This document shows, piece by piece, positions 3,288 through 52,863 of a DNA stretch of 64,000 nucleotides. The notes under the pieces are model-generated. The model was given only the letters and a program-made list of their open reading frames with translations. It was not told the origin of the DNA and did no database searches. The position numbers and the translations under genes were made by a program. The stretch lies in the NCBI RefSeq assembly GCF_040394755.1, contig NZ_JBEBRQ010000003.1; one strand, 5' to 3'. Numbering within the stretch: the first letter of the stretch is position 1; every line of letters begins with the position of its first letter. The stretch comes from Castellaniella defragrans (GTDB taxonomy: Bacteria > Pseudomonadota > Gammaproteobacteria > Burkholderiales > Burkholderiaceae_B).

Positions 3288-3297
3288 GATATACCCC

Positions 3298-23256: not shown

Positions 23257-23339
23257 CAGCCTTTTACTCCAATTCTTGATAAACGAATTACTTCGCCAGA
23301 ATTTGCAGCCAGGAACACCACCAGAAGCGATCCCATGGA

Positions 23340-25282: not shown

Positions 25283-25371
25283 GATTTAATCTACCAATAA
25301 GTCAATGGATGATGTCCTCTGCGGCGTTGATAGCCAACGGCCCGCACCACCCTTCTGGGACCCAGCATGAT

Positions 25372-26838: not shown

Positions 26839-26991
26839 TACGGATTGCCTCTTGCTGTAAATTAGCGAATTCCATCGACCGGGACTACCTGCTCGACCAA
26901 CCTGGCATCCAAGAAATCACGCATTTGCGCAACGCGGCGAAACGCGCCATTTCATCGGTCAAAATATTATGCGTAATTCAAGACTTACGAA

Positions 26992-28764: not shown

Positions 28765-28829
28765 ATCTTTTGGGGAAATGTACTTTTCACTTCATAATAT
28801 ATTCAAAACGCATCGCGCAGCATCTCCCC

Positions 28830-31800
28830 TTATGAATCAGGATTGTATTGCCAGATACGATTCAACTCGGAACGCATCACCTGCATTGTTTTTTCACTGG
28901 AAAATAGACTTCCAGAATATGCCAGGCCTTTTTTCCCCAAATCATCCGCATAGCTTCTATCAGAAAATATTTTGCGCATCCCTTCGCGCATTGAAGCAGA
29001 CAATGGATCGGCCCACAAGTAATGTGGAGGATAGGGTGCGTTGCCTTCTCCAACCTCGACAAGACGATATTCCAGAGGCCATGCTGAGTCAGGGGTCACA
29101 AAATCAGCAGCCCCACCATAAGGCGTGGCAATCACGGGTTTTCCCGCTCTCATCGCTTCCAATATAGTCAGCCCGAGCCCCTCGGATCTGTGCGGTGAAA
29201 CATAACAATCAATCAGTTGAAAGAGATCATGCATTTCATGATCTTCCAGCGCCCTGTCCATGAAAATTATATCTGGACGCTGCCGAGCCATCGAAACAAG
29301 CTTCTGGATATTAACATCTTCAGGATTTGAATAATGTATTTTGATTAGACAACACGCACCATCATCCGGCCCGAATTCTTCAAGATAAGCATTGAGCAAT
29401 GCCAACGGATTCTTGCGGCCTAGAATGCTCCCCGCATCCGCCGCATAGAAAAAGATAAATCGATCATCGGGGAGATCAAAATCATGCCTTTTCATTGAAC
29501 ATGAGGTCTGTGATTGTTCCAGCATTGGACGAACCACACGGACAGGAGTCCTGGACACCGCGGCGACCGATCGTGCAATGAACTCACTTGCACACCAGAT
29601 CTCATCGAAACGATGGATTATTTCATGCCATTCAGGTAGGAGGGAAGACAGCTCCCAATATACTATCGCAACGTTATAGCAGCAGGGCGCCACAAGCTCT
29701 CTTAATGGCGCACAGTCGAGCAGACTCGCGTTTGCAAGCAGGTCAAGATTGAGATGAACGATATTGATCGGCTGCTTATCAATCGATGGATACTCGATGG
29801 GCGTTCGACGGAGCCGCTCGAATCCCAAGCGCCATGGAACGACATTGATTGGTATATCGGTCTCCAGCAAACAGGAGACATAACCTCTCGCGCTGATACT
29901 TACGCCATTGACAAACTCCACAGGTCCTATGAAATTGACCCCTAGTTTTTTATGTAAGGGTCTGATCCACGTCCGCAGGGCGGGGACTTTGTTGGCAGCG
30001 GATGTACGCCGCAGATTATTCTCTTTTGCCTTAAGTATGGCGCTCACATCGCATTGGGCAGGCTTGCCTGGCGCGGCCATTATTTCGATCTTGCTGCCCC
30101 ATAATGTGGTATCTCGCACTTCAGTTAGACCAATATGGCCATTTTCCTGCGTAGCGATTAGACCAAAGAGGCGTTCCATTGCATGCGCAGTTTTACCGTC
30201 ATTACTACCGTCCTCGGCTTCTAGAGATATGCCTGCATCGGTCAACTGTAATAGTTTTTTCAATGTCCGAGGCCCCATCCAGAACATGGTGCCGGCAAAA
30301 AATCCCCATTCGGGCGGCAGCGGCTTTCCTGGATAGAGTTGTCCTGCCAGCTTTTTGAGCTTTGGGCCATTATCCATGATGAGAGTAGGCCCCGAAACGT
30401 ATAGATCCTTCGCGCCAACCAGCAATAGGTCGGGGTCGGCCTGGAAACAACGGAGGATGCCACTGACAAGATACTTGTTATCCAGCACGCCCTGCAGCAT
30501 TAGCGTTCGCCACATTTCGGGCAAAGTCTGCCCCTTCTTTGTATGAAGCTTGCAGATCGCAGTGTAATTGCTGGCCGCGAGTAATGGTAGAACGGTCAAA
30601 AATGGGCCAATATCACGTCCGGCGTTACTGGTCGTAAGCACCCTCGCGGCAGGAAACAAACGATGCACCTGCTTCCGGAGTGCTTCCACATTGGAATCCT
30701 CGGATACAGACACATATAAATCAAAGACTATAGGAATATTGCGGAGAAAGAGTACAATCTCGCTCCAAAGATCCTCATAATAAAGATGCACCACAACTGC
30801 GATTTTGACATCTCGAAGCAATATGCCTGGATCGAAGGCTCGTTCCTCCTGTACCAATCCATGCTCAAGATAGTGGGATAGCAGATTCACATCACGAGAG
30901 GCCAACTCTGGATGCTGTGTTAGATACCACTTGCCGTCAAAAAGCGGGGCCGGCTCCCGGTTTTCATATATACCACGCCTCAAATAATGAGCAAGCGGAT
31001 TGATCCCGGTACGAACCACATCTTTATTCCGCATGAGATACCAGCTGGTATCGAATACGGGATTCGGATTCCGCCTTTCATCAACGCCAAATCTAAGATA
31101 ATGAACCAATGGGTTTACGCCGGAACTTGCCACATCCGGATATTGCGCCAGATACCAACTTGTAGTGAAAAGCGGATTGGGGTTGCGCCCTTCGATAGCG
31201 CCATGCATTAGGTAATGCCGTATTGGATCCTTGCCTTTTTCCGCAACATCCGGGTACTGTTTCAAATACCAATCGCAATCAAACAACCCGCTGGCGCAAA
31301 GCGATTTACGATCACGCGCAACCATGAGTATCTTCTGTATTGGATCGAATACCAAACGCATCAAATTAGCCAGCGGCAAGCACACATTGCGCATGAACCA
31401 ACGCAGCGGGTATGTCAGGCGCCAGATTTTGGAGCTGCGTAGCGCAGCGATCTCCTGCTGCAGCGATGCTATGGCCTGGCTCTTTTCGGTAATTTCGAGA
31501 TCGAGGGTTCTGACATGTTGCCGCAACACATCTGCATCGCGTGTTAGTTCGGTGACCCGATGAGATTCCTCAACGACGGTTTTCTGTGCCTGCCCCAACC
31601 GCTCTGACAACTGCGTTATTTCCTCCAAGGGATTGAATTTCCTTGAACTCCATTGATTATTTGTTTGCGGTGGCGCCACCGACTCGTATGTTGACAGATC
31701 GAAATGACCGGGAACAACTTTCTCCTGCGTTCCCGCAATAACGCGCTTACCCAACAAATTCTCTGCGACCGTTCGCTTCCGAACCACACACATTGAGTTT

Positions 31801-32432
31801 ATGAATTCGATGGAATGGATGGAGGCCAATTCCTCGATCTCAAAGTCGAGCCCATATTTATCACGGAATCCGGACAGCAAATCCATCGGTGGCTTCTCGA
31901 TGCCCCAGTGCTCATAGTTGACGATATCGGCCAGATGCTTGAAGAAACCAATGGATGAATATGGATCATACAGGCCACCATCAAACCCCTCCCAATAGCT
32001 GCAGTGCATATCCTCTGCAACAAACAGCCCGCCATCAACGAGATATTTGAAATACCGAACAAAGCTCTGAATGATATCTCCAGAGGTGTGCGACCCATCG
32101 TCAATGACGATGTCGAATCGATCGGAAATAGCGATAATGCATTCTTGCGTGGCGTCTTTGTTCGCATCGCCAACAACAACAGTAATCCGAGGATCATCGT
32201 ACCGAAGACGCGCACAGTCCGGATTGATGTCGCAACCCACAAGATGCACCGCATTTGGAAAATATTTTCCCCAGATATCCAATGACCCGCCATTTTGTAC
32301 ACCTATCTCCAGAAGATTGACGGGATGCTCTTGATAAGGATCGAACAAGCGATCGTATTCTTCCAGATATAAACTCCATTTATCGGAAACTTTCCCGGTG
32401 TGTTCACGATAGAGTTGCTTTAATTTGGTCAT
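28830..32432 (-). CDS. 1200-aa multidomain O-polysaccharide enzyme: methyltransferase - coiled coil - 4x38-aa repeats - RgpF-like GT - GT4
   Basis: LEIGVQNGGS/IVIDDGSH (class I MTase); heptad region; VVHLYY..GRDIGPF..KLHTKK..FAGTMFW..HAMERLF (RgpF); SEGLGLTILEAM (GT4). Confidence 0.85.
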   Translation of the reverse strand: MTKLKQLYREHTGKVSDKWSLYLEEYDRLFDPYQEHPVNLLEIGVQNGGSLDIWGKYFPNAVHLVGCDINPDCARLRYDDPRITVVVGDANKDATQECIIAISDRFDIVIDDGSHTSGDIIQSFVRYFKYLVDGGLFVAEDMHCSYWEGFDGGLYDPYSSIGFFKHLADIVNYEHWGIEKPPMDLLSGFRDKYGLDFEIEELASIHSIEFINSMCVVRKRTVAENLLGKRVIAGTQEKVVPGHFDLSTYESVAPPQTNNQWSSRKFNPLEEITQLSERLGQAQKTVVEESHRVTELTRDADVLRQHVRTLDLEITEKSQAIASLQQEIAALRSSKIWRLTYPLRWFMRNVCLPLANLMRLVFDPIQKILMVARDRKSLCASGLFDCDWYLKQYPDVAEKGKDPIRHYLMHGAIEGRNPNPLFTTSWYLAQYPDVASSGVNPLVHYLRFGVDERRNPNPVFDTSWYLMRNKDVVRTGINPLAHYLRRGIYENREPAPLFDGKWYLTQHPELASRDVNLLSHYLEHGLVQEERAFDPGILLRDVKIAVVVHLYYEDLWSEIVLFLRNIPIVFDLYVSVSEDSNVEALRKQVHRLFPAARVLTTSNAGRDIGPFLTVLPLLAASNYTAICKLHTKKGQTLPEMWRTLMLQGVLDNKYLVSGILRCFQADPDLLLVGAKDLYVSGPTLIMDNGPKLKKLAGQLYPGKPLPPEWGFFAGTMFWMGPRTLKKLLQLTDAGISLEAEDGSNDGKTAHAMERLFGLIATQENGHIGLTEVRDTTLWGSKIEIMAAPGKPAQCDVSAILKAKENNLRRTSAANKVPALRTWIRPLHKKLGVNFIGPVEFVNGVSISARGYVSCLLETDIPINVVPWRLGFERLRRTPIEYPSIDKQPINIVHLNLDLLANASLLDCAPLRELVAPCCYNVAIVYWELSSLLPEWHEIIHRFDEIWCASEFIARSVAAVSRTPVRVVRPMLEQSQTSCSMKRHDFDLPDDRFIFFYAADAGSILGRKNPLALLNAYLEEFGPDDGACCLIKIHYSNPEDVNIQKLVSMARQRPDIIFMDRALEDHEMHDLFQLIDCYVSPHRSEGLGLTILEAMRAGKPVIATPYGGAADFVTPDSAWPLEYRLVEVGEGNAPYPPHYLWADPLSASMREGMRKIFSDRSYADDLGKKGLAYSGSLFSSEKTMQVMRSELNRIWQYNPDS
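30830..31286 (-). repeat. Four 114-bp (38-aa) intragenic repeats
   Basis: LFDCDWYLKQYPDV..HYL..G..EGRNPNP / LFTTSWYLAQYPDV.. / VFDTSWYLMRNKDV.. / LFDGKWYLTQHPEL..; unit starts 31286, 31172, 31058, 30944. Confidence 0.9.
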
Positions 32433-33799
32433 GACGAAGATCTTAGAGATACATGATCGAATCTGATACCAACCAGCCCCCAGCGCACTTTACTTGACGA
32501 CACATTGATGAACATGGCGTCGTGGAGCAAATGGTGCTGTACGTTGTTATGCAAATCGCCATCGGCCACAGAGGCCATTACTGAATACGTGCCGTTGGGA
32601 AGCATAGGTAGCGTGAAAACGAACACCCCCTCAAAAACAGTTCCTTTTTCCATCGGCTGCGGGCAATTGGCGGTGAAGGGCAGGGTGTTCTCTCCGAACA
32701 GGTCCTGCCCAAGGCGATCCCGGACGATGAAACCCAATATGGGATGCGGTAAGTCTTGGTTTGCCCTGGCCCTGATCCGAAGCTGGACACGCTCCCCGCC
32801 TTTCAGCACTGGCGCGCTCTTGCCATCAACCGTTGCAAACTCGATATCGATTATTTCCGCGCCACCGCTTTTCCATCCATTTGCCGCATTCAGATTATTT
32901 TTGATTCGATTAGAGGATTCGTAATCCAGTATGGCATCTCGTTGGATAGACTCCTCATCGACATCATCAAGCAGCGCATCACTCTCGAACTCCAGCTTTG
33001 CCCCCTGTGTCGATTCGACAGGAGCCAGCTTCGCCTCCTCACCGTAAATTTCTTGCAGCGTATACTGCAGATAGGCCTCCGAGATAGCTTTTGATTCCCC
33101 CATCCGCACAATCTTTCCATTGCCAAGCCATATTGCGGACTTGCAAAGGTTCAATACCGAACCCATATCGTGGCTTACAAACAGCAGGGTTCCGCTCTTT
33201 TGGAATTCACGAATGAAACGCATGCATTTCTGCGTGAATACGGCATCGCCAACGGCCAATGCTTCATCAATGACGAGTATATCGGCATCCACATGCGCAA
33301 TGACGGCAAAGGCAAGACGCACATACATGCCGCTGGAGTAAGTCTTGACTGGATGGTCGAGATGCTCTCCAATATCCGCAAACATGGCAATTTTATTGAA
33401 CCTGGCATCTACTTGTTCAGTGCTAAGTCCATACAAAGAAGCAGCCATATAGACATTCTCGCGCCCAGTAAACTCCGGGTTGAAGCCAGCCCCCAGCTCC
33501 AATAAAGCCGCAACCTTCCCATTCACGGTGATGTGGCCTAACGTAGGATTCAGAGTGCCGCAAATCATCTGCAGCAACGTTGACTTACCCGAACCGTTGC
33601 GACCAATGATGCCCACTGTTTCACCTTTAAGTACAGTGAAGGATACGTCGCGCAAGGCCCAGAATTCGTGAAATAGCGCTTTTTTCCCCCGAAGAAACAT
33701 TTGTAGAAGCCGGTCGCGTGGCTTGTCGAAAATAGGATAAGCCTTACCAAGACCCTCCACGCGAATGGCTATATCGCCAGCAGAAACCTCAGATGACAT
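32429..33799 (-). CDS. wzt: O-antigen ABC transporter ATPase with C-terminal carbohydrate-binding domain
   Basis: GRNGSGKST, LLELGAGFNPEFTGREN, YSSGMYVRLAF, DEALAVGD plus a Wzt_C-like beta domain. Confidence 0.93.
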   Translation of the reverse strand: MSSEVSAGDIAIRVEGLGKAYPIFDKPRDRLLQMFLRGKKALFHEFWALRDVSFTVLKGETVGIIGRNGSGKSTLLQMICGTLNPTLGHITVNGKVAALLELGAGFNPEFTGRENVYMAASLYGLSTEQVDARFNKIAMFADIGEHLDHPVKTYSSGMYVRLAFAVIAHVDADILVIDEALAVGDAVFTQKCMRFIREFQKSGTLLFVSHDMGSVLNLCKSAIWLGNGKIVRMGESKAISEAYLQYTLQEIYGEEAKLAPVESTQGAKLEFESDALLDDVDEESIQRDAILDYESSNRIKNNLNAANGWKSGGAEIIDIEFATVDGKSAPVLKGGERVQLRIRARANQDLPHPILGFIVRDRLGQDLFGENTLPFTANCPQPMEKGTVFEGVFVFTLPMLPNGTYSVMASVADGDLHNNVQHHLLHDAMFINVSSSKVRWGLVGIRFDHVSLRSSS

Positions 33800-34607
33800 C
33801 CGCGAACCCTTTACGTGTTTTCTGAAACCATGCAAAACCAAGCACGGCTGCAAAAAAACAGCCGGCCAGATACATCAGATATCGGCCCGGGTCCGGCACA
33901 GTGCCCCAATACAGAATCTCACGGATCTGACTTATCGCCGGCGCAAGCGGATTAAGTACCAACAACGGCCGATATTTTTCTGGAAGCGCCTCGATGGGGA
34001 AAAAAATAGGCGAAAGAAACATCAGCACCGTCGTCAGGATTCCAACCAGCTGGCTGATGTCTCGCAAATACACGCCGAGCGAGGCAAGCCCCCATCCCAA
34101 TCCGACTATCAGTAATATCAAAGGAAACAACACGAAAGGAAGGAGCAATACGGTAAAATGCGGCGGACCGATTACGATGGCATAGAATATGAGCCATACA
34201 AAAGCGCTGATGAGGGCATGGAATAATGCTGACCCAATGGCAACCCAGGGCAGGACCTCCAGCGGGAATATGACTTTCTTCACATAATTCGCGTTAGAAA
34301 GAACCAGGCTTGGCGAGCGATTGAAGCATTCAGCAAAAAGGTTGAATACGATCATTCCCGCAAAAAGGATTAGCGCAAATTCGGCCCTTGACTCACTACC
34401 CCCGCTCCACCGAACCTTGAACACGACACTGAATACGAACGTATAGACCGCCAGCATGAAGACCGGATTGAAAAACGACCAGAGCAATCCAAGCATGGAC
34501 CCTCGATAACGGCCGATAACCTCTCTTTTTGCGAGGGCGAGAATCAAGCGTCTATTCCGCCACAAACTCGCCACCATTTCGCGGGGTGATGCACTGAAGT
34601 GTTGCAT
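33789..34607 (-). CDS. wzm: O-antigen ABC transporter permease
   Basis: RYRGSMLGLLWS, NANYVKKVIFP, YLRDI, LNPL motifs. Confidence 0.94.
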   Translation of the reverse strand: MQHFSASPREMVASLWRNRRLILALAKREVIGRYRGSMLGLLWSFFNPVFMLAVYTFVFSVVFKVRWSGGSESRAEFALILFAGMIVFNLFAECFNRSPSLVLSNANYVKKVIFPLEVLPWVAIGSALFHALISAFVWLIFYAIVIGPPHFTVLLLPFVLFPLILLIVGLGWGLASLGVYLRDISQLVGILTTVLMFLSPIFFPIEALPEKYRPLLVLNPLAPAISQIREILYWGTVPDPGRYLMYLAGCFFAAVLGFAWFQKTRKGFADVI

Positions 34608-35152
34608 CAGGCGAATACCTCGGCATTGACCAGCAGGATTGCCGCCTTGTCTTTGTCAGAGAGCAGCGGCTCACCGGCGAAAGGCCATTCGATCCCGATT
34701 GCGGGGTCGCGCCATGAGATACCTCGCTCAAACCGCGGCGCATAATAATCCGTGGTCTTGTACAAGAATTCCGCCGTATCCGACAGCACGACAAACCCAT
34801 GCGCAAACCCCTCCGGCACCCAAAGCTGTTTCTTGTTTTCGGCACTGAGCCTTTCCCCAACCCATTTCCCAAAACTAGGCGAATTCTTGCGAATATCCAC
34901 CGCCACATCGAATACTTCACCAACAACAACTCTGACCAATTTCCCCTGAGGTTGCTGGATCTGGTAGTGCAAACCGCGCAATACATTCCGAGCCGATTTG
35001 GAGTGATTGTCTTGCACAAAGGTCACTTTACGGCCAATCGCCTCCTCGAATTCCGCATGATTGAAACTCTCGAAAAAGAACCCCCGATCGTCCCCAAAAA
35101 CCTTGGGTTCGAAAAGGATCACATCTGGAATGGCAAGCCGGGTCGCTTTCAT
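34607..35152 (-). CDS. rfbC: dTDP-4-dehydrorhamnose 3,5-epimerase
   Basis: FGDDRGFFFESFN, QDNHSKS, LRGLHYQ, PEGFAHGF. Confidence 0.96.
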   Translation of the reverse strand: MKATRLAIPDVILFEPKVFGDDRGFFFESFNHAEFEEAIGRKVTFVQDNHSKSARNVLRGLHYQIQQPQGKLVRVVVGEVFDVAVDIRKNSPSFGKWVGERLSAENKKQLWVPEGFAHGFVVLSDTAEFLYKTTDYYAPRFERGISWRDPAIGIEWPFAGEPLLSDKDKAAILLVNAEVFA

Positions 35153-35154
35153 GA

Positions 35155-36036
35155 CTATTTGACCTCCCTGGCAATCTGCATGAGATACTTCCCATACCCA
35201 TTCTTGCTCAACGGCTTGGCCAACTTCCGGACCTGCTCCGCATCGATCCACTTCTGCCGGAACGCAATTTCCTCCGGGCAGGCAACCTTCAACCCCTGGC
35301 GGTTCTCCAGGGTGGCAATGAACTGCCCCGCCTCCAGCAAGGATTCGTGCGTGCCGGTGTCCAGCCACGCGTAGCCGCGGCCCATGATTTCGACATTCAA
35401 TGTGCCCTGCTCCAGATAGAGGCGATTCAGGTCGGTGATCTCCAGTTCACCCCGGGCGGAGGGCTTCAGGTCTTTTGCCAGACCGACCACCTGGTTGTCG
35501 CAGAAATAGAGTCCCGTGACGGCATAATTGGATTTGGGCTTGGCCGGTTTTTCCTCCAGTGACAGCACCCGGCCATCCTCGTTGAACTCGGCCACGCCGT
35601 AGCGCTCAGGGTCCTGGACGCGATAGGCGAACACGCTCGCGCCTTCAATGCGCTGCATGGCATTGCCCAGCAGCCGATGAAAGTCGTGCCCGTAAAAGAT
35701 GTTGTCGCCCAGCACCAGGGCCGATGGGCCGTTGCCCACGAAATCCGCGCCGATGATGAATGCCTGCGCCAGCCCATCGGGGCTGGGCTGCACGGCGTAC
35801 TGCAGGTTCAGCCCCCACTGGCTGCCATCGCCCAGCAGCTGCTCGAAGCGCGGCGTGTCTTGCGGGGTGGAGATGATCAGGATGTCGCGGATGCCGGCCA
35901 GCATCAGGGTGGACAGCGGGTAATACACCATGGGCTTGTCGTACACCGGCAGCAGTTGCTTGCTGACGGCCAGGGTGGCGGGGTGCAGGCGCGTGCCGGA
36001 TCCGCCGGCCAGGATGATGCCTTTGCGTTGTGTCAC
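35155..36036 (-). CDS. rfbA: Glucose-1-phosphate thymidylyltransferase
   Basis: [38 protein letters not shown]. Confidence 0.97.
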
Positions 36037-36039
36037 GGT

Positions 36040-36930
36040 TTACTTCTCCAGAATCTCTGCCAACATGCGGGCGACGCCCGTTTGCCAATGCGGCAGGGTC
36101 AAGCCAAATGTGGTTTGCAGTCGATGGGTGTCCAGGCGCGAATTGCGCGGCCGTTGGGCGGGGGTGGGAAAGGCGCTGGTGGGCACGGGCTGGATGGCGT
36201 CCGCCGCCACTTTCAGGTCCACCCCATAGGCGCGAGCGATGTCCAGTACGTAGCAGGCGTAGCCATGCCAGGAGGTTTCTCCGCCCGCCACCAGGTGATA
36301 CAGGCCGGCGGTTGCCGGCCGATCCTGCGCGGCGCGCAGGGCGTGGGCGGTGACGTCGGCCAGCAGATCGGCCCCGGTGGGTGCGCCGATCTGATCGTCG
36401 ATCACGGTCAGGGCGTCCCGCTCGCGGGCCAGGCGCAGCATGGTTTTGGCGAAGTTGCCGCCGCGCGCGGCATACACCCAGCTGGTGCGAAAAATCAGGT
36501 GCCGGCAGCCCGAGTCCCGAATGGCAATCTCGCCGTCCAGCTTGCTGCGGCCATAGACATTCAAAGGTCCGGTCGTATCGGTCTCGACCCAGGGGGTGCT
36601 GCCGCTGCCGTCAAATACATAGTCGGTGGAATAATGCACCAGCCATGCGCCCAGGCGATTGGCCTCGGTCGCCAGCAGGGCCGGAGCCAGCGTATTCAAC
36701 TGGCGGGCCAGATCGGGTTCGCTTTCGGCCTTGTCCACGGCGGTGTGGGCGGCCGCGTTCACGATGACGTCGGGGGCGATGCCGCGCACAGTCTGCTTGA
36801 CCTCGTCCAGGCGGGTGTAGTCCCCGCCCGGCGTGTCGCGGCCCAGGGCGATCAGCTCACCCAGCGGCGCCAGGCTGCGTTGCAGTTCCCATCCTAACTG
36901 GCCGCACTTTCCCAGCAGCAATATCCTCAT
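36040..36930 (-). CDS. rfbD: dTDP-4-dehydrorhamnose reductase
   Basis: [36 protein letters not shown]. Confidence 0.95.
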
Positions 36931-37997
36931 ACGGCGCGCCCGCTGTAGTTCTGTTCGACCCAATCGCGATAGGCGCCGGTTTGCACGGTTTCAACCCACG
37001 CCTGGTGGTCCAGATACCATTGGACGGTCTTGCGGATGCCGGTTTCAAAGGTTTCGGCGGGTTTCCAGCCCAGTTCGCGTTCCAGCTTGCGGGCATCGAT
37101 GGCGTAGCGGCGATCATGGCCGGGCCGATCCCTGACGAAGGCGATCTGCTCCTGGTAGCTTTTTCTATCCAGGCGAGGCCGCAGCTCATCCAACAAAGTA
37201 CAGACGGTATGGACGATCTCGAGATTCGTCTTTTCGTTCCAACCGCCGACGTTGTAGACCTCACCCGTTTCACCGGCTTGCAACACACGCCGGATGGCGC
37301 TGCAGTGATCCTCGACGTAGAGCCAGTCGCGGATCTGCTGGCCGTCGCCATACACGGGCAAGGGTTTGCCCGCCAGCGCGTTGACGATCATCAGCGGAAT
37401 CAGTTTTTCCGGGAAATGGTAGGGGCCATAATTGTTGGAGCAATTGGTCGTCAGGACCGGCAAACCATAGGTATGGTGATACGCGCGCACCAGGTGGTCG
37501 CTGGCGGCCTTGCTGGCCGAATAAGGGCTGTTGGGCTCGTAGCGATGGGTTTCGCTGAACGCCGCATCGTCTTTGTCCAGGGACCCGTAGACTTCGTCGG
37601 TGGAGACATGCAGGAAACGAAAGCCGGTTTTGCGCTCGCCCGCCAGGCCATTCCAATAGGCGCGCACGGATTCCAGCAGATGAAAGGTGCCAACGATATT
37701 GGTCTGTATGAAATCCTCGGGACCGTGGATGGAGCGATCCACGTGGCTTTCTGCCGCGAAATTGATGACAGCACGTGGGGCATGATCGGCCAGCAATCGA
37801 TCGACCAGCGCGCCATCGCCGATGTCGCCTTGCACGAAGGCATGGCGCGCATCCCCCTGCAGGCTTTCGAGGTTGTGCAGGTTGCCGGCATAGGTCAGCT
37901 TGTCCAGGTTGATCACCGGCTCGTCGCTATTTTTCAGCCAGGCCAGCACGAAATTCGCGCCGATGAAACCAGCGCCTCCCGTCACTAATATCGTCAT
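36927..37997 (-). CDS. rfbB: dTDP-glucose 4,6-dehydratase
   Basis: [44 protein letters not shown]. Confidence 0.97.
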
Positions 37998-38144: not shown

Positions 38145-38495
38145 CTACTTTGCCATCCCCTCGTCCGGCGCCTCGCGCCGCAGCGCCTCGATTTCCCGCC
38201 GCAACGCCTCGTACTCCCTGAGCTTGATCTTCAGAAAATCCGCGGCCAGTTCGGCCTTGGCGGCGATCCCCGCCGGGGTCAGCAAATAGGCATAACTCAG
38301 TTTGTTCTGGCTATTGCGAAAGTTCTGCATCTTGATCAGCCCCTTGTCCAGCAAAGCGCGGATGCAGTAGTTGGTCTTGCCCAGGCTGACGCCCAGCGCC
38401 TCGGCCAACTCGCGCTGACTGAGGCTGGGGTCGGACTCCAGCAGTCGCAAGACCTTCAGGTGATATTCGTCGGACGAGGTGGTATCGGAGGACAT
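38145..38495 (-). CDS. MarR-family EPS-associated winged-helix regulator
   Basis: LSQRELAEALGVSLGKTNYCIRALLDKGLIK..YAYLLTPAGI. Confidence 0.9.
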   Translation of the reverse strand: MSSDTTSSDEYHLKVLRLLESDPSLSQRELAEALGVSLGKTNYCIRALLDKGLIKMQNFRNSQNKLSYAYLLTPAGIAAKAELAADFLKIKLREYEALRREIEALRREAPDEGMAK

Positions 38496-38517
38496 GGCCT
38501 ACAGAAAACTCTGCGGG

Positions 38518-38582
38518 CACGCTACCGCCGTGCTGTGTCACGGTCAGCAAGCGCACAGGGGAGTACGTTCATGAATTGAACG
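38518..38582 (-). promoter_or_regulatory. JUMPstart-like leader with RfaH ops, copy 1, plus upstream palindrome
   Basis: Minus strand GCGCTTGCTGACCGTGACACAGCACGGCGGTAGCGTG (38554-38518; ops GGCGGTAGCGTG); CGTTCA-N5-TGAACG at 38566-38582. Confidence 0.85.
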
Positions 38583-38874
38583 CGATGGTACACCGATGAC
38601 CCCCCCATGAAAACCCTATATCAATACAATTTGTACATTTGATTTAGATTGATTATAGGAATCGGGAAATGGCTACCGCATCACTGCTGGCTGCCTGAGA
38701 AAAGACTTCGGCCGCCTGCCGGCGGCCGTCAATGTGTGTCCGCTGTGGACACTAGCAATCGGAAGATCCGCGCAACAAGCTCGCCCGCCGGGGGCCCCGC
38801 GTGTCACGCAAAATTTACAGGAAGGGGAATGAACCTGGGCAAGGCCCGAACGATCACATCGGGCTAGGCGCGGC

Positions 38875-40677
38875 TCAAGGGATCGCTGCCCGGCGCCGCA
38901 CCGGCCGGGGCGATGGATGGGCATGGGCAACCATGTCCTGATAGGTGCCCTGGGCCGCAATGCGTCCGGCAAGCAGCTGCACCACCCGATCGCATCGCTG
39001 CAATGTCGACAAGCGATGCGCAATGATCAAAACAGTCAATTCGGCCCCGAGACCATCGATCGCATCCATGACGGCCTGCTCTGTCTCCGTATCCAGGGCG
39101 CTGGTGGCCTCGTCCAGGATCAGGATCTCCGCCCGCCGATACAGCGCGCGCGCGATTCCGATGCGCTGGCGCTGACCGCCGGACAGGCGCACACCACGCT
39201 CGCCGACTTGGGTCCTGTAGCCTTCCGGCAAGGATTCGATCGTGTCCTCGATCTGGGCCTGCCGGGCAGCCTGGCGCACCCGTTCCGTATCGATCTGGTC
39301 TGGCGGAATGCCGAAAGCGATGTTCTCCGCGATACTGGCATCCAAGAGATAGATGGATTGCGGGACATGCGCGATACGGCGCTGCCAGGCCCGCTGTACG
39401 CTCGGGTCCAGCTGGATATCATCGATCCACAGACCGCCCTCGGTCGGAATCAACAGCCCCATCACGATATCCAGCAGCGTGCTTTTGCCGCTGCCCGTGA
39501 CGCCGATGAAACCGATCCGGCTGCCGCGCGGGATCCGCAAATTCAGGTCACGCAGGATCTCGGGGCTGTCGGGAGCATAGCGAAAGCCCAGGCCGCGCAA
39601 CTCGATGCCATGTCTGAAGGGCAGCGCGCGGGTACTCTCGTAGACCGAGGAATCGATCGGCTGACCCAGCAGATCCAAGGCATCCCGCAGCGAATCCCGG
39701 CTGCTGCGCAGCTGGATCACGGACAGATACCCTTGTTGCATGATGGGCAGCAGGCGCTGGGCCCCAAGCGCCAGGGCGCCCAGCAAAGCGATCGTGCTGG
39801 TGATCCCGCCGCCCTGGTGAGCCATGGAATAGGCAAGAATAGCGATGAACGCCATACCCATGGCCTCTGCCGCAAAGCGCGGCGAGCCGCCAATGATGGC
39901 GCTATTGGCCTGGGCATGACGCAATTGGAGGTCCGCGTGGCGGTACTGCTCGCAATAGGTTTCCTGGGCGCCATCGAGCAGCACATCACGGATGCCGCCC
40001 AGGCCCTCCTGCAGGACCTTGACGACCCGCTCGGACTCCTCGGAAATCCGCCGGCTGTAGGCGGCAAGACGCGTCCTGGTCACCAGAATCACGATGCCAT
40101 AGATCGCGCCGAATCCACCAAAAGCGGTCAAGGACATCAGAGGCTCGACCGCCAGCAGGGCCAGCAGGATGGCCGCCAGAATGACCGTGCTGCTCAGCAG
40201 CGTCAGGATCGGCATCAGGAAATAATTGATGACCATCGTGACTTTGGTGGTTACACCGCTGATGACCTCGCTGCTGTTGCGCGAAACGTGCACCGCATAC
40301 GGCTGATACAGGGTGCGCCGATAGATCTGGTAGCTGAAATCCGCCCCGATGGCGAACGACAGCCGGGTCTGCACATACAACAGCAGCAAACGCATGGCGC
40401 CCGCCAGCAAAGCGGCGGCAATGAATGCCAAAGTAATCGGGAACAATAACGCCTGGGGGCTGGTGATCCGCAGCCAGGACAGCATCGGCTGGATGGCCGG
40501 GTAGGCAAAAACCTTTTCCGGCTGGGTCAATACCCCCAGGAACGGCAGTACGGCGCCCAGGCTCAAGACCTCGGCAAAAGACGCCAGCACCATGAGGATC
40601 AGCAAGAGGACCAACTGCCGCTTGCGGCGCGGGGTCAAATGGGCCCAATATTCCTTGGACAGCGCAAGCAGGGTCAT
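38875..40677 (-). CDS. ABC transporter permease/ATPase, PglK/MsbA-like glycolipid flippase
   Basis: N-terminal TMD; GVTGSGKST, LSGGQRQRIGIARAL, LDEATSALD. Confidence 0.85.
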   Translation of the reverse strand: MTLLALSKEYWAHLTPRRKRQLVLLLILMVLASFAEVLSLGAVLPFLGVLTQPEKVFAYPAIQPMLSWLRITSPQALLFPITLAFIAAALLAGAMRLLLLYVQTRLSFAIGADFSYQIYRRTLYQPYAVHVSRNSSEVISGVTTKVTMVINYFLMPILTLLSSTVILAAILLALLAVEPLMSLTAFGGFGAIYGIVILVTRTRLAAYSRRISEESERVVKVLQEGLGGIRDVLLDGAQETYCEQYRHADLQLRHAQANSAIIGGSPRFAAEAMGMAFIAILAYSMAHQGGGITSTIALLGALALGAQRLLPIMQQGYLSVIQLRSSRDSLRDALDLLGQPIDSSVYESTRALPFRHGIELRGLGFRYAPDSPEILRDLNLRIPRGSRIGFIGVTGSGKSTLLDIVMGLLIPTEGGLWIDDIQLDPSVQRAWQRRIAHVPQSIYLLDASIAENIAFGIPPDQIDTERVRQAARQAQIEDTIESLPEGYRTQVGERGVRLSGGQRQRIGIARALYRRAEILILDEATSALDTETEQAVMDAIDGLGAELTVLIIAHRLSTLQRCDRVVQLLAGRIAAQGTYQDMVAHAHPSPRPVRRRAAIP

Positions 40678-40997
40678 GATGTCTCGGATGCTTGCCGCAA
40701 TCGCTTTATATTCTGTTTCATAATTTAAGATTATTGACCTTTCGGTTTCAATGAATTATGCACGGATTCCATCTTTGCGCCAATATCATGTGGCGCCGGA
40801 TACCGGTCAAATGGCACTGTTTCTGGTGTTTTACATTTTGATAAACAGCCTGCAAAACCACAGCGCATCATAGGTCGCCTGGGCTGATGCCTGGCTCATG
40901 CGACAGATCACGCAGGCTCAGGCCAGATTGGCCTCCAGCAAACGCAGGACTTTCCAGTGGCTTTCTCCGAGAGAAGGCGTTTGCCATGGAATGCCTC

Positions 40998-42308
40998 TTA
41001 CCGCGCCCCCCAGCCAGTCAGAATGATCCGCACCGTCTTGAACACGATCAGGATGTCCAGCCACAATGAGAAGTGCTTGATGTAATAAAAATCATGCTGG
41101 ATTTTGATCCGTGTCGCATCAACGTCCCCAGCGTATCCCTGCATGACCTGGGCCCAGCCGGTCAGGCCGGGACGCACCACATGCCGGTAAATATAGAACG
41201 GAATCTCACGATCGAACTGATCCACGAACACGCGCTGCTCAGGCCGCGGGCCGATCAGACTCATATCGCCCTTGAGTACATTCCATAGCTGCGGCAACTC
41301 GTCAAGACGCGCCTTGCGGATGAAAGCACCGACACGGGTGACCCGATCATCGCCGGAAGCCGCGAACCGGGCACCATCGGATTCCGCGCTGACACGCATA
41401 CTGCGAAACTTATAGATGCGAAAATTCTTGCCTCCCAAGCCGACCCGACTCTGGATGAACAGCACCGGACCTGGACTATCAAAACTGACCGCAATGGCCG
41501 TCAACAGCATCAATGGGAGCGTAATAGGGGCAGTCAGCAGGACACCCACGATGTCGATCATTCGCTTGCACATAGAATACAGCGGGGAGGGCAAGAGGGA
41601 ACCCACTTCGTTCTCGGACAGGCGATCGATCTCGACCCGGCCCGTCAGGCTCTCCATCGCCTGGCGCACATGAAACACCGGAATATGGGCCAGAATGCAC
41701 TGCGCCAGAAAGCGCTCCCACTCGGAACTCAGGTCCTTGGCCTCGAGATCCGCGACGACGGCATCATATCGAACCCCCGCCAGGTCGGGCGCCGACAGTT
41801 GGCGAACCTCCAAATTGTGCCGTGACCCTACCGCACAAGCGGCTCCCACGGGCACCACGGCCAGCTTCAGCCTACGATAACGGCGACCGATGAAATAGCT
41901 CCCATAGCACCAGAACAATGCCAGGACATAAGCCATCAGCAGGATCGGCCTGGAATAGGGACTGCGACTGAAGAACAGAACCGCAAAGGCCACGAGGAAT
42001 ACCATCGTCACGACGGGCGCAATATGGGCAATAAAGGCCCCGCCCGAGAATCGCCCAAAGCGGTGCAAAGTCACGACAATAACCAGGCACGACAGTCCAA
42101 CGGCAATAAGGGTATTGATCCGGACCGGATTCATATAGAACCAGAATGACGATCCCCACTCCAGGAGAGCAGGCAACAATGCAACCATCAGCAAGCCAAC
42201 CACCAGTTGGAATGGCCAGCCCAACAACAAAACCTCGTACCAGCGGGAATGACGTCGCGCATACCGGCTGATCGGCTCTATAGGTTTCCTCAAACTAGAT
42301 TTGTTCAT
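40998..42308 (-). CDS. Polyprenyl-phosphate glycosylphosphotransferase (initiating sugar transferase)
   Basis: 4 TM plus [32 protein letters not shown]. Confidence 0.9.
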
Positions 42309-42562
42309 ACTCTGTCAGCTTTGTTCGCATCATCACAGAAACAATAATTTGTTACCGCATTCTGGCGAATCGCCTGTCTTTACCCCTGCAACTGCCGGAC
42401 AAACGCTCAAAAAATCCTGATTCGCCAAAAAATAGTGGCGATACGATCTATCGGCCCTGATCGGCCATTGCGCTTCAAGGATGGCCCATGAGGTCGCGCA
42501 GTCTGGCGATGCGCTTTTCCTCTTGGGTTCTGACTGGGACTGCCCAGACTACACTTGGGGCT

Positions 42563-43795
42563 TCATTGGTGTTCGATGACCAACTCGTTCAGCATATTGG
42601 CAAAACGTGCGGCGAGCGCATCGAACCCGTGATTCCGCTCGACATACGTCCTGCCCGATCGGCCCATTTCAGCGCGCTCGCTAGCCGGTGTCGCGACAAG
42701 AGTTGCGATGGCCTGAGCCAGCGCAACCGGATCGCCCGGCTGTACCGTGATCCCCGCATGTGCCTCAGCAATCGGATTATTCGATGAATTGCAGCAGAAA
42801 ATTACCGGACGGGCACCGGCAAGAAAATCAAATATTTTGTTTGGACTGATCCCATATTTAAAAACAGGCGAGTCTATCAAATTGAAAACGAACGCATCAG
42901 CCTCTGCCGCCAAGGCTGGAATTTCATTTTTCGGCACCGGATCTTCGAATTCAACATTATTCAATCTCAACTCGTCGGCCAATCGGATCAACGATAATTT
43001 GAGGGGGCCTGCACCAATCATACGCAGCCTGACATGACGCATATCGGAGCGTTTCTGTATTTCCGCCATCGCCTTGATGACACAATCCAGACCATTTGCC
43101 TGCCCATGTGCGCCAAAGTACATCAGCACGAACGCATCACGAGCGGCCACTGGCGCCGGCTCTGGATAATCTTCCAATTCAACGCCGTTTGGTATCCATA
43201 CGATCTTGCGCTCTGGAATCCCCAGCGGAACAATATATTCACCCGCCCGCGGTAGAACAACCACGATACGGTCAGCTTTTTCGTAGAGCCATTTCTCGAG
43301 TCTGCGCAATGCTTTCGTCATCAGGCTGTTTTCCTGCAACCGGCCGAAATCGACCAGCGTTTGGGGCCATAAGTCCCGGACCTCGAACACGAACGGCACT
43401 TTGAAACGTTTGGCAAGCAGCGCACCCGCCCACGCAGCAAACGGGTGTGCGCTCGACCCCATAATGACATCCGGCTTATCCAGCCCGCTGGTGACGCCCG
43501 GCATGAGGACCCGGGCAGCATAGACCAGCATGTTTCTTATCCGCCCGCCACCGTTGCCCTCATATGAAGGCGTACGGATCCAAAGAAATCGAACCCCATC
43601 AAAATCATTGATACGCGAGACGTCTTTATTTGTAATTCGCTTATGGCCGGTATGATGTTCAAAACTTGCGGCAATCACAGAGGCTTTCCATCCATGTGAC
43701 ATCAAATGCCGCGCAAGCCCATAATGCCGTGTAATGCCTGCCCCCCCGGGCTCTTGCGCATAATGATTGAGTATCCAGACGTTTCTCACAATCAC
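42563..43795 (-). CDS. GT4 glycosyltransferase (WbuB/WbpJ-like)
   Basis: ILNHYA, GSSAHPFA, FEVRDLWP, YFGAHGQANG, SPNKIFDFL. Confidence 0.88.
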   Translation of the reverse strand: MIVRNVWILNHYAQEPGGAGITRHYGLARHLMSHGWKASVIAASFEHHTGHKRITNKDVSRINDFDGVRFLWIRTPSYEGNGGGRIRNMLVYAARVLMPGVTSGLDKPDVIMGSSAHPFAAWAGALLAKRFKVPFVFEVRDLWPQTLVDFGRLQENSLMTKALRRLEKWLYEKADRIVVVLPRAGEYIVPLGIPERKIVWIPNGVELEDYPEPAPVAARDAFVLMYFGAHGQANGLDCVIKAMAEIQKRSDMRHVRLRMIGAGPLKLSLIRLADELRLNNVEFEDPVPKNEIPALAAEADAFVFNLIDSPVFKYGISPNKIFDFLAGARPVIFCCNSSNNPIAEAHAGITVQPGDPVALAQAIATLVATPASERAEMGRSGRTYVERNHGFDALAARFANMLNELVIEHQ

Positions 43796-44862
43796 AATTC
43801 CCTGATCAAACTATCTGCAATAATGGATGCAGCATTACCATCACCATACGGCTGGATGTCAAACCCTTCACTCCCCAATGCCCTCTCCAACACAGAGGCG
43901 ATGTCACCCCCATTGGTCGGTGGAGCCAGGCGATTCCATCCACCATCAACCAGTTCCGACCATTCGGTCTCATCTCTCAGAGTCACGCACGGCACCCGGT
44001 AGAAAAAGGCCTCTTTCTGGACGCCGCCCGAATCAGTCGCAATCAAATGTGCGTTCTTCTCGAGCATCACCATATCGAGGTAACCGATCGGATCGATCAC
44101 ACGGACGTTCTTGGGCAACGTGAGGCCCTGTGCGGCAAGCCGTCCCCGAGTCCGAGGATGCAAGGGGAGCACAATATCCGCACCAAACTGCGCGAAACCC
44201 TCAAAAATAGCCGCTAGCCGTTGAGGATTGTCTGTGTTCTCGGCGCGATGAATCGTTGCCAGGGCATAACGCCTAGGCGTAAGACGCAGAGAGGCGAGAA
44301 TCGAACTCGACTGCTCGGCCTTATCACCGTAAAACAGCGCGGCATCGTACATGACATCACCCACCAAGCGCACCCTGGCGTCGGCAATACCTTCCCGAGC
44401 CAAGTGTGTCACGGCGGTTTCTGTCGGCGCAAATAACAGATCCGCAGCATGATCGGTAAGAACACGGTTGATTTCCTCAGGCATCCGCCGGTTGAATGAA
44501 CGCAGCCCCGCCTCGACATGAGCGACAGGAATATGTAGTTTCACCGCCGCAACAGCGCCGGCAAGAGTTGAATCCGTGTCACCATAGACAAGCACCCAAT
44601 CAGGGCGTTGTTCGAGTAAAATCTGCTCAACAGCTTCGATCATCCGACCGGTGTTCTGTCCATGCGTACCGCCGCCAATGCCAAGATGATATGCCGGACG
44701 GGTAATGCCCAACTCGTCGAAAAACACATCGGACATATTCGCATCGAAGTGCTGCCCGGTATGAATCAATTTCTCGGCAATACCCCTGACTACGAGAGCC
44801 TGCGAAACAATAACCGCCTTGATGAATTGAGGGCGGGCACCGATGATCGTGATGACGTTCAT
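43792..44862 (-). CDS. wbpI: Non-hydrolysing UDP-sugar 2-epimerase (WbpI/WecB family)
   Basis: GARPQFIK, HTGQH, YGDTDSTLAG, HVEAGLRSFN..PEE.NR, TDSGGVQKEA; context implies a UDP-diNAc-glucuronate substrate. Confidence 0.8.
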   Translation of the reverse strand: MNVITIIGARPQFIKAVIVSQALVVRGIAEKLIHTGQHFDANMSDVFFDELGITRPAYHLGIGGGTHGQNTGRMIEAVEQILLEQRPDWVLVYGDTDSTLAGAVAAVKLHIPVAHVEAGLRSFNRRMPEEINRVLTDHAADLLFAPTETAVTHLAREGIADARVRLVGDVMYDAALFYGDKAEQSSSILASLRLTPRRYALATIHRAENTDNPQRLAAIFEGFAQFGADIVLPLHPRTRGRLAAQGLTLPKNVRVIDPIGYLDMVMLEKNAHLIATDSGGVQKEAFFYRVPCVTLRDETEWSELVDGGWNRLAPPTNGGDIASVLERALGSEGFDIQPYGDGNAASIIADSLIREL

Positions 44863-44872
44863 TTCAATCCGA

Positions 44873-45976
44873 TTATTTCAAAATAGATTCATAAAGATCA
44901 ATCAGCTTTTTCTCCTCAACCCCCCAGTTATAGCGGCTCTCGACCGCACGCCGCCCATTCTCGCCCATTGCCCGCGCCTGCTCGGGATGGTTGGCGAAAA
45001 AGTCGATTGCCGCGGCAATTTCGCGGGGATCGAGCGGATCGACACACAAACCGCAGTCGTTGCCCTCGATGATCTCGCGCCACAACGGGAAGTTCGAGGC
45101 GATGACCGGGATGCCAGCGCTCATGTATTCGAACATTTTGTTAGGTTGGGCATCTATGTGATTCGGAGCGGGTAGAAATGTTACCAACCCAGCGAACGAT
45201 CGGCCGAGCACGCTCCGTACGCCTGCCCTATCCATAAAACCGAGTTCATCAATCCGATTCCACCCGCCATACTGCCGAACCTCCGCGCTGACGGGCGCTT
45301 CGGAGAACGTGCCGACGAGTTGCAGCCTTGCGTCGGAGCGTATGTACTCCATTGCTCGGACGATCTCCCGTACCCCGCGAATTGCAGCAATGCCGCCGAC
45401 ATAACAGATATTGCTGCGTATCCCTTCCGCATCGGCCGGCTCGGCTAATTCCCCCCACATCGGAAAATTGTTGATGTCGATTGCGCGTGCGTTGATACCC
45501 AGAAATTTATCCCGTATGAATGGCGTGGCTGCCACAATGGCATCGAACTCTCCACAGGTTCTCCGTTCATACACGGAGAATACCCAGGAGAGCAGCTTAC
45601 GCTTCATGGGACTCAAATAGGGCTTACCTAATAATTGTTTAGGAACGTCTTCATGCGAGTCGAAAATGACGCGCTTTCCCATGCGCTTCAACTTCAGTCC
45701 TGCGGGAATGAGTTCCGGATCGTGAAAGTGATAGATTTCGGCGTCAACGGCGATGGCTTTGGCAAGCACACGCTTTGTTGCGTGACGGATTCTATCGAGC
45801 CTGCCACTGGATGCGCCTGCATCGTGGATTTCTATACCCTCCCTATCCTCTCGGCCTTTTCCGTCGGCAACGATCAACGCAACCTTATAACCGGCGTTGG
45901 ACAGAGATCGACATTCCTTGAGAAAGATGCGTGTGTCGTAGCGAGAATGGACGGATGTAAGGTGACAGATTTTCAT
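44873..45976 (-). CDS. GT4 glycosyltransferase (WbpH-like); ORF extends to 46063
   Basis: MKICHLTSVH..DTRIF.KEC.SL, YHFHDPEL, FDSHED, PNKMFEYMSAGIPVIAS. Confidence 0.88.
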   Translation of the reverse strand: MKICHLTSVHSRYDTRIFLKECRSLSNAGYKVALIVADGKGREDREGIEIHDAGASSGRLDRIRHATKRVLAKAIAVDAEIYHFHDPELIPAGLKLKRMGKRVIFDSHEDVPKQLLGKPYLSPMKRKLLSWVFSVYERRTCGEFDAIVAATPFIRDKFLGINARAIDINNFPMWGELAEPADAEGIRSNICYVGGIAAIRGVREIVRAMEYIRSDARLQLVGTFSEAPVSAEVRQYGGWNRIDELGFMDRAGVRSVLGRSFAGLVTFLPAPNHIDAQPNKMFEYMSAGIPVIASNFPLWREIIEGNDCGLCVDPLDPREIAAAIDFFANHPEQARAMGENGRRAVESRYNWGVEEKKLIDLYESILK

Positions 45977-46073
45977 TTGGCAAACATGCACGTGAATACT
46001 CAATTCCGTGCCCACAACATTGAAAAGGAATCCGCGAATGGTCCGACGCAGCAAGCTCACCACAATGGGCGCT

Positions 46074-47381: not shown

Positions 47382-47414
47382 GAAGGCCTAACAGGATATA
47401 ATGACAACCGAAAA

Positions 47415-48581: not shown

Positions 48582-48638
48582 TCGCCCGTTGGGCTGCCAA
48601 TATCGTTCAAATGATGTCGCATTGAAATTGCGCAGTAA

Positions 48639-49931: not shown

Positions 49932-50043
49932 ACTCCTGGAATCTGGCTGGATTGATCAAGAGATTCCTTAAGCAGGGTCCTTGGATCTTTCAAGAGATTC
50001 ATAGCGCGGGATAACATGCCAATTCCATAAATCGACATCCGAT

Positions 50044-51131: not shown

Positions 51132-51135
<4 letters not shown>
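50044..51135 (-). CDS. wbpE: UDP-3-keto-GlcNAcA aminotransferase (DegT/DnrJ family)
   Basis: [42 protein letters not shown]; coupled to wbpD and wbpB. Confidence 0.88.
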
Positions 51136-52831
<1,696 letters not shown>

Positions 52832-52863
52832 CAATACTACGGAATCAAGGCTACCCGGCAGGT

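Follow-up and report, generated by a model that had tools for sequence, protein, structure and literature searches.

A palindrome and a JUMPstart-like leader at two O-polysaccharide operons of Castellaniella defragrans: a predicted two-layer control

Two promoter cassettes in a polysaccharide locus

The stretch of Castellaniella defragrans DNA considered here (64,000 nucleotides of contig NZ_JBEBRQ010000003.1; hereafter the window) carries two operons predicted to make different O-polysaccharides, and each is headed by a short cassette. A cassette comprises a predicted promoter, a palindrome, and a leader element that ends in the 12-nucleotide ops sequence. The first gene of operon 1, directly behind cassette 1, is marR_EPS, which encodes a small regulator of the MarR type, and operon 2 begins with a wbpB-like gene. 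The window also includes a gene for an RfaH-like paralogue of NusG. Coordinates of all features are collected in Table 1.

The two leader elements are 37-mers that agree at 36 positions (repeat family D7, spacing 14250). On the minus strand, which is the sense strand, they read 5'-GCGCTTGCTGACCGTG(A/T)CACAGCACGGCGGTAGCGTG-3', with ops, GGCGGTAGCGTG, at the 3' end; the exact 12-mer is found nowhere else in the window. The consensus used to define this leader class was GGCGGTAGnnTG on the non-template strand, downstream of a promoter and upstream of the first gene, and it is found in that position at both cassettes. Each 37-mer includes a CCGTG-N6-CACGG hairpin that overlaps the first two G residues of ops. 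The palindrome, CGTTCA-N5-TGAACG, lies upstream of the 37-mer by 11 nucleotides in copy 1 and 10 nucleotides in copy 2; its arms are the same in both copies, and its spacers are unlike (TGAAT and GGGCA, respectively, on the plus strand). A preliminary description of the window had reported this arrangement, together with the position of marR_EPS, and sequence comparison bears it out.

The core of the palindrome, GTTCA-N5-TGAAC, occurs exactly twice in the 64-kb window, once per cassette, where 0.04 occurrences are expected, and none of 100 shuffles reached two. A search of the window allowing one mismatch yielded no additional site. Between and around the conserved blocks, the two copies have diverged in sequence, so the blocks appear to be held by selection and not to reflect a recent block duplication.

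The distance from ops to the start codon is 22 nucleotides for marR_EPS and 113 nucleotides for the wbpB-like gene. A Shine-Dalgarno sequence at normal spacing is absent before the ATG of both genes (38496-38517 and 52655-52767, minus strand).

Two further sequences in the window resemble parts of the cassettes. Between the terminator-like hairpin of operon 2 and cassette 1, a partial ops, GCGGTAGCC (38679..38672, minus strand), lies 15 nucleotides upstream of a perfect TATAAT (38657..38652). Relatives do not conserve this TATAAT. It was therefore rejected as cassette 1's promoter and may act as a secondary one. The CCGTG-N6-CACGG hairpin sequence has a third copy, CCGTGCTGTGGCACGG, at 54979-54994 on the plus strand. 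This copy is located inside the coding sequence of a waaL-like gene, with no ops or palindrome nearby, and it is probably a coincidence and not a further cassette.

The palindrome, its promoter and the MarR_EPS family

The palindrome is found in the upstream regions of marR_EPS genes from many bacteria. Loci from 80 different species were fetched by means of a MarR_EPS protein alignment, so that DNA played no part in their retrieval, and 12-20 kb around each gene was compared. The loci span Alcaligenaceae, Comamonadaceae, Oxalobacteraceae, Gallionellaceae, Nitrosospira, Thiobacillus, Methylotenera, Methylobacter, Crenothrix and Competibacter, and 79 of them have at least 200 nucleotides of upstream sequence. 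Within 200 nucleotides upstream of marR, 67 of these 79 have an exact GTTCA-N5-TGAAC. In seven further loci, all from Castellaniella, the palindrome is about 2.77 kb upstream and heads an operon in which marR is internal (cassette-wbpD-wbpE-marR-wbpB), and three additional loci have it with one or two mismatches. Stray occurrences outside such positions number at most two in 820 kb. Across 78 distinct sequences, the ten arm positions do not vary at all. The spacer, at its five positions, and the flanks do vary, and the only preferences there are for C at -1 and a purine at +15. In about 75 of the 80 species, from several orders, no noncoding feature upstream of the MarR_EPS gene is better conserved than the palindrome. 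The preliminary description had proposed a search of relatives for the composite motif and had counted lack of conservation of the palindrome against its own reading; the palindrome proved to be conserved.

The palindrome is present before marR even where ops is not, as in locus L008 and in the Polaromonas and Rhodoferax loci. Multiple cassettes also occur elsewhere, with three in locus L012 and two in L070. In L012, from a metagenome-assembled genome (MAG) of the Alcaligenaceae, the three are arranged in tandem about 2 kb apart (1779-6001). A three-gene module without a Pfam match follows each of the first two, and marR follows the third. Cassettes two and three share identical upstream flanks, which suggests that they arose by recent tandem duplication.

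The promoter of the cassette is marked by a TGnTAnnnT box located 1-4 nucleotides before the palindrome in nearly all of 78 distinct relatives. Among the aligned relatives, there is no conserved -35 box and no conserved position at a fixed distance downstream of the palindrome. Because the box adjoins the palindrome and these other signals are absent, the arrangement is most simply an extended -10 promoter whose start lies inside the palindrome. The right arm was also considered as the -35 box of an extracytoplasmic function (ECF)-type promoter, and this was rejected for want of fixed-distance conservation downstream.

RNA sequences are available for a homologous cassette in Castellaniella denitrificans (locus L017), in which the -10 box is at 3217-3222 and the palindrome at 3226-3240. 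In two runs of one study, metatranscriptome contigs begin at 3240, and sequencing-adapter junctions fall at exactly this position; in two more runs, the contigs begin at 3249 and 3251. Depth is zero over the 270 nucleotides upstream. In a second study, depth rises from 8.6 to 169 at 3249, a step of about 20-fold. Because the 5' ends and the depth steps fall at 3240-3251, the abundant RNA of this locus is without the palindrome. The preliminary description had treated the palindrome as part of a transcribed leader, and this part of it does not hold: the palindrome abuts the extended -10 box, covers the transcription start inside the polymerase footprint, and is not an element of the leader RNA. 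All four metatranscriptome runs also contain a separate contig of about 2.7 kb that matches only two 27-nucleotide pieces of L017, 394 nucleotides apart (3699-3725 and 4120-4146); it is probably a related gene of another organism.

The MarR_EPS protein of the window has 3456 homologues. In an AlphaFold model of the window protein (pLDDT 76, pTM 0.43), helices are placed at residues 5-21, 27-34, 38-50 and 74-108, consistent with a winged helix-turn-helix followed by a 35-residue C-terminal helix. With this model, Foldseek revealed no match at E <=0.001, and MarR and SlyA entries align at an rmsd above 11 A. A profile search of solved structures returned only the LrpA helix-turn-helix, a generic DNA-binding-domain match. 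The gene heads an rml/wzm/wzt operon in the window, and relatives show a similar exopolysaccharide or O-antigen setting. A literature search found no paper on what MarR_EPS (TIGR04176) binds or does.

A divergent subfamily of MarR_EPS was found by scanning metagenomes with the ops leader alone, which yielded 89 loci. A MarR_EPS homologue is encoded behind 54 of the 74 leaders that have enough downstream sequence, and 52 of these begin within 250 nucleotides. For many of these homologues, identity to the window protein is only 50-60 %. In their promoters, TGgCACAAT is followed by GTTCG-N5-CGAAC or GTTCG-N5-TGAAC. In the proteins, positions 40-46 of the recognition helix read G(T/S)INFCFQ, versus GK(T)NYC(I/L/V)(K/R) elsewhere, and in the wing R60 is changed to S and N61 to Q. 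That palindrome and recognition helix change together looks like co-evolution of a dimeric DNA-binding protein with a symmetric site. The proposal in the preliminary description that the palindrome is an operator for the MarR_EPS protein is therefore supported by three features of the sequences, namely co-occurrence across species, presence without ops, and change with the recognition helix, and the palindrome is referred to below as a predicted operator. The promoters of the divergent subfamily (L093, L096, L101, L119, L127, L149 and L169) also have a second conserved inverted repeat, TTGCC-N5-GGCAA, about 35 nucleotides upstream of the -10 box, which may be the site of another regulator.

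The ops leader, the RfaH-like protein and the neighboring genes

Of 89 cassettes, 53 have ops after the palindrome, at a spacing of 13-81 nucleotides; ops is missing from those of Pollutimonas, Polaromonas, Rhodoferax and others. The ops module is thus separable from the palindrome and the marR promoter. Where present, ops is embedded in a conserved element, GCGCYTGCYGA-N8-CRGCA-N-GGCGGTAGCGTG. A scan of the whole window with Rfam at gathering thresholds gave no match. A permissive scan aligned the JUMPstart model (RF01707) to both copies at 17.6 bits (E 0.26), below the gathering score of 35; the alignment covers the ops part only, and the 20-nucleotide hairpin of the model is deleted.

Three candidate structures for the leader were tested on an alignment not chosen for structure. 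A TGCYG-N9-CRGCA helix, which ends one base short of ops, is 100 % paired in an alignment of 24 distinct sequences. Four UA-to-CG cells in it are compensatory, and none of 500 shuffles reaches this. The CCGTG-N6-CACGG hairpin, which the preliminary description had emphasized, is real in the window and was rejected as the conserved structure: it is 85.8 % paired (14 % of cells unpaired), lacks compensatory changes and does not rise above shuffles, and the helix that is conserved overlaps it. In the minimum-energy fold of the window leader, ops pairs with an upstream GCGCUUGCUG, and CCGTG-N6-CACGG is at the tip (-19 to -20 kcal/mol, z about -2.9). Across species, this long hairpin likewise exhibits no compensatory change and does not exceed shuffles; it is possibly an alternative conformation. 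Distant loci (L063, L065 and L089) have unlike hairpins at the same place directly before ops, which implies that the topology, a short hairpin and then ops, matches that of JUMPstart while the sequence family differs. In a Competibacter MAG (L080), a JUMPstart-like hairpin block, CAATTCGCCAGCAATGCTGTACCTGGTACGGCAG, occurs twice in tandem about 60-190 nucleotides upstream of marR, and a full ops comes after the second copy alone.

The RfaH-like protein of the window was called RfaH in the preliminary description. Its best matches among solved structures are RfaH (E 3e-9) versus NusG (E 4e-4), and the UpxY model scores 47 bits; it is called an RfaH-like NusG paralogue here. In many loci, an rfaH-like gene is directly upstream of the cassette. 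The association was counted in 67 genome loci whose upstream sequence extends for 3 kb or more: those with ops have rfaH nearby in 14 cases and lack it in 17, and those without ops have it in 1 case and lack it in 35. Synteny of rfaH with waaL is kept in L006, L007, L010, L014 and L155. Conservation of ops and the adjoining rfaH-like genes of many relatives support the RfaH/ops layer that had been proposed. RfaH has a proposed role in ribosome recruitment (PMC6391919), and first genes without a Shine-Dalgarno sequence fit this role.

Table 1. Features of the two cassettes and of the surrounding polysaccharide genes in the window
Feature	Coordinates	Strand	Remarks
Cassette 1 extended -10 box (TG + TACCAT), predicted	38585..38592	-	3 nt from box end to GTTCA; aligns with the conserved TGnTAnnnT box of 78 distinct relatives
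Cassette 1 palindrome, predicted MarR_EPS operator	38566..38582 (core 38567-38581)	.	predicted start window 38578..38567, minus strand
Cassette 1 JUMPstart-like leader element	38518..38554	-	conserved helix arms 38549..38545 and 38535..38531; CCGTG-N6-CACGG hairpin 38543..38539 / 38532..38528; ops 38529..38518
Cassette 2 -10 box TAGTAT, predicted	52834..52839	-	preceded by CG, not TG; 3 nt from box end to GTTCA
Cassette 2 palindrome, predicted MarR_EPS operator in trans	52815..52831 (core 52816-52830)	.	predicted start window 52827..52816, minus strand; 32 nt past wzz stop codon (52864)
Cassette 2 JUMPstart-like leader element	52768..52804	-	conserved helix arms 52799..52795 and 52785..52781; ops 52779..52768
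marR_EPS, first gene of operon 1	38145..38495	-	116 aa winged helix-turn-helix, long C-terminal helix; TIGR04176 156 bits vs cut-off 88
rfaH-like NusG paralogue, predicted reader of both ops sites	56026..56628	-	RfaH models and structure matches; orthologues adjoin cassette in many relatives
Operon 1 remainder, ABC-transporter-dependent rhamnan-type O-polysaccharide pathway	22270..37997	-	rmlB, rmlD, rmlA, rmlC, wzm, wzt, 1200-aa RgpF/GT4/methyltransferase protein, GT2, manC, gmd, rmd-like, methyltransferase
Operon 2, Wzx/Wzy-type O-polysaccharide pathway	38875..52654	-	wbpB-like, wbpD-like, wbpE-like, wzx, C5-epimerase-like, unknown membrane protein, GT4, wecB, GT4, polyprenyl-phosphate glycosyl-1-phosphate transferase, MsbA/PglK-like ABC exporter
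Terminator-like hairpin, 8-bp G+C stem, T-rich tail	38709..38728	-	between operon 2 and cassette 1
wzz-like chain-length determinant	52864..54096	-	own promoter-like site 54229..54202; without palindrome or ops
waaL-like O-antigen ligase	54693..56060	+	Wzy_C domain

The genes around the cassettes are predicted to encode two polysaccharide pathways (Table 1), and the 1200-residue protein of operon 1 combines rhamnan-synthesis, GT4 and methyltransferase domains. In the closest relatives (L001, L004, L011, L014, L092, L143 and L155), there is one cassette, followed by marR-wbpB-wbpD, with WbpB proteins 87-92 % identical to that of the window. The window differs in that marR and a cassette precede the rhamnan operon, and a marR-less cassette remains before wbpB. 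Because the closest relatives have a single cassette, the two-copy arrangement is derived. Remnants of a deleted marR were looked for between cassette 2 and wbpB, and none were found.

The divergent wzz and waaL-like genes are separated by a 590-nucleotide AT-rich intergenic region (54100-54690) with short direct repeats (54261-54299) and minus-strand promoter-like sites. Within operon 2, an 88-nucleotide segment (42438-42525) shares 82 % identity with a stretch inside wzz (53352-53439; repeat family D1). It sits in a 254-nucleotide gap between a GT4 gene (42563..43795) and a sugar-phosphate transferase gene (40998..42308), and has the appearance of a recombination scar or of what is left of a wzz pseudogene.

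Predicted control, alternatives and relation to known systems

The cassettes probably exert two-layer control, with MarR_EPS acting at the palindromes of both operons and the RfaH-like protein being loaded at ops. The sequences, their conservation and placement, the co-occurrence of regulator and palindrome and the RNA 5' ends of C. denitrificans are observed; binding, repression and dependence on RfaH are predicted from them. Each cassette would have four parts: a sigma-70 promoter dependent on its extended -10 box; directly after it, the 15-bp palindrome GTTCA-N5-TGAAC over the transcription start, with half-site centers 10 bp apart; a free spacer; and the JUMPstart-like element, in which a short helix, TGCUG-N9-CAGCA, would end one base before the ops 12-mer. 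A MarR_EPS dimer on the palindrome would block RNA polymerase. MarR_EPS would most likely repress its own rhamnan-type operon and also, in trans, the marR-less Wzx/Wzy-type operon. Polymerases that escape would pause at ops about 50 nucleotides downstream and load the RfaH-like protein, which would carry them through the 14-16 kb operons and may aid translation of the first genes that are without a Shine-Dalgarno sequence. Repression is more likely than activation because the palindrome lies over the transcription start.

Several observations weigh against this reading. The RNA 5' ends were taken from C. denitrificans and not from the window organism, and they fall where the palindrome ends on its 3' side, some 18 nucleotides past the -10 box. 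This gap fits the model only if conventional libraries lose about the first ten bases; loss of the first bases of an RNA is known from conventional cDNA libraries, and the gap is tentatively ascribed to it. Cassette 2 has CG in place of TG before its -10 box, and because it begins only 32 nucleotides after wzz, read-through from wzz may contribute to its transcription. The covariation of operator and recognition helix is represented by essentially one clade split. No binding, reporter or mutant results for any member of the MarR_EPS family were found in the literature. The RfaH-like protein has its best model scores with RfaH, but these are below the NCBIfam cut-offs (96.5 versus 144.5 bits for TIGR01955, and 71.5 versus 124 for another model). 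Finally, the association between ops and a nearby rfaH has a Fisher p value of 4.5e-5 in a test that ignores species relatedness.

The palindrome might be an operator from which MarR_EPS activates or counter-silences, in the manner of SlyA or RovA against H-NS, or does both by occupancy. The promoters have no recognizable -35 element, as is common at activator-dependent promoters, these glycan clusters, which are horizontally mobile, have AT-rich intergenic regions around them, and MarR-family proteins that activate polysaccharide genes are known. However, a site downstream of the -10 box and over the start is the classic position for steric repression and is unusual for activation, and the weak -35 is accounted for by the TG-extended -10 box, so activation is rather unlikely. 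It is also improbable that some other co-occurring regulator binds the palindrome and that MarR_EPS binds elsewhere: the palindrome tracks the marR_EPS gene across orders whatever glycan genes adjoin it, it changes when the recognition helix of MarR_EPS changes, and no different regulator gene is consistently present in the loci. A point in favor of another regulator is that the inverted repeat further upstream in relatives of the divergent subfamily (group B), TTGCC-N5-GGCAA, means that more than one factor may act at these promoters.

An RNA function for the palindrome, as a 5' stabilizing stem-loop or part of an attenuator and not as a protein site in DNA, is very improbable. The palindrome can fold as a 6-bp hairpin (-4.6 kcal/mol), the change from GTTCA/TGAAC to GTTCG/CGAAC keeps pairing, GTTCG/TGAAC hybrids would give G-U pairs, and read-through from wzz would transcribe copy 2. 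However, eight of the ten arm positions never vary in more than 100 sequences and there is no other compensatory pair, the loop length is fixed at 5, and A/C hybrids exist. Moreover, the left arm would be barely transcribed, if at all, because the -10 box ends 1-4 nucleotides before it, and the abundant RNA of C. denitrificans begins at the last base of the right arm. Least credible of all is that the two copies are a mere residue of duplication without a regulatory role. A duplication or rearrangement did take place, as the single cassette of the closest relatives indicates, but only functional blocks are kept between the copies while spacers and flanks have diverged, and conservation of the same blocks across families contradicts a relic. 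Repression by MarR_EPS at the palindrome, followed by loading of the RfaH-like protein at ops, is the reading preferred here.

Control by ops and RfaH and autoregulation by MarR-type proteins are each already known kinds of control. The JUMPstart/ops-RfaH leaders of Enterobacteriaceae (RF01707; rfb, rfa, kps, hly and tra operons) have the same ops 12-mer on the non-template strand in the 5' untranslated regions of long polysaccharide operons. They likewise have a short helix just before ops and first genes without a good Shine-Dalgarno sequence, and also an RfaH-type NusG paralogue in the genome, which is predicted here. In contrast, the window leader fails the Rfam model (17.6 versus 35 bits), its upstream half has a consensus of its own, GCGCYTGCYGA-N8-CRGCA, and it is fused to a predicted repressor-type operator at the promoter. 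The present element occurs in Betaproteobacteria and methanotrophic Gammaproteobacteria, and the rfaH-like gene often adjoins the cassette. MarR-family autoregulators such as MarR, SlyA, RovA and HcaR resemble MarR_EPS as small winged helix-turn-helix proteins encoded directly behind a palindrome over their own -10/+1 region, with half-sites one helical turn apart. They differ in that MarR_EPS is only about 110 residues long, with one long C-terminal helix and no evident ligand pocket, and its predicted operator is unusually invariant across orders.

A parallel in the kind of proteins involved is the group 2 capsule (kps) cluster of Escherichia coli, where SlyA acts at initiation and RfaH/ops at elongation on the same cluster. 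Both cases pair a MarR-family protein for initiation, here predicted, with RfaH/ops for elongation. SlyA is a global regulator encoded elsewhere, which antagonizes H-NS at sites upstream of the promoter, whereas MarR_EPS is encoded by the first gene of its own operon, its predicted site covers the start, and both layers form one compact cassette. The UpxY/UpxZ system of Bacteroides capsular loci similarly includes a locus-linked NusG-like antiterminator and a small regulator gene, with cross-locus coordination of polysaccharides. However, UpxZ inhibits heterologous UpxY and does not bind DNA, recognition is by the leader of each locus and not by ops, and there is no sequence relationship. In gene content only, operon 1 resembles the common polysaccharide antigen (CPA) genes of Pseudomonas aeruginosa (wzm/wzt, gmd, rmd-like, manC and a rhamnan-synthesis domain) and operon 2 the O-specific antigen (OSA) genes (wbpB/D/E-like, wecB, wzx, with wzz upstream), with one waaL-like gene nearby. 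The window locus additionally has rmlBDAC, and to our knowledge CPA and OSA share no promoter cassette.

Literature searches found no description of a TIGR04176 operator and its near-universal conservation, of its fusion with an ops leader, of the frequent rfaH-cassette-marR gene order, or of a JUMPstart-like element missed by Rfam. A search on ops in Betaproteobacteria found nothing relevant. MarR_EPS, which is annotated in thousands of genomes, gains a precise predicted operator and a predicted mode of action, which should interest workers on polysaccharide gene regulation. Searching for the 15-bp motif offers a practical way to locate the promoters of polysaccharide clusters, and members of the regulon, in Betaproteobacteria and methanotrophs, floc- and biofilm-forming wastewater bacteria among them. 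Control by ops and RfaH would be a standard part of glycan loci well beyond enterobacteria, with a leader that escapes the current Rfam model.

For the window organism, the prediction is that two different O-polysaccharides share one control of initiation and one of elongation. A wider reading, less likely than not, is that a locus-linked rfaH paralogue, the operator-ops cassette and marR_EPS as first gene together form an old and widespread master switch of surface-glycan loci in Beta- and Gammaproteobacteria. If this is true, the MarR_EPS of one locus would, because the operator is nearly identical everywhere, determine how fast transcription initiates at all other cassettes of the cell. Several polysaccharides would then be coordinated in a dosage-linked or hierarchical way, by a logic parallel to that of UpxY/UpxZ in Bacteroides but assembled in Proteobacteria from unrelated components.

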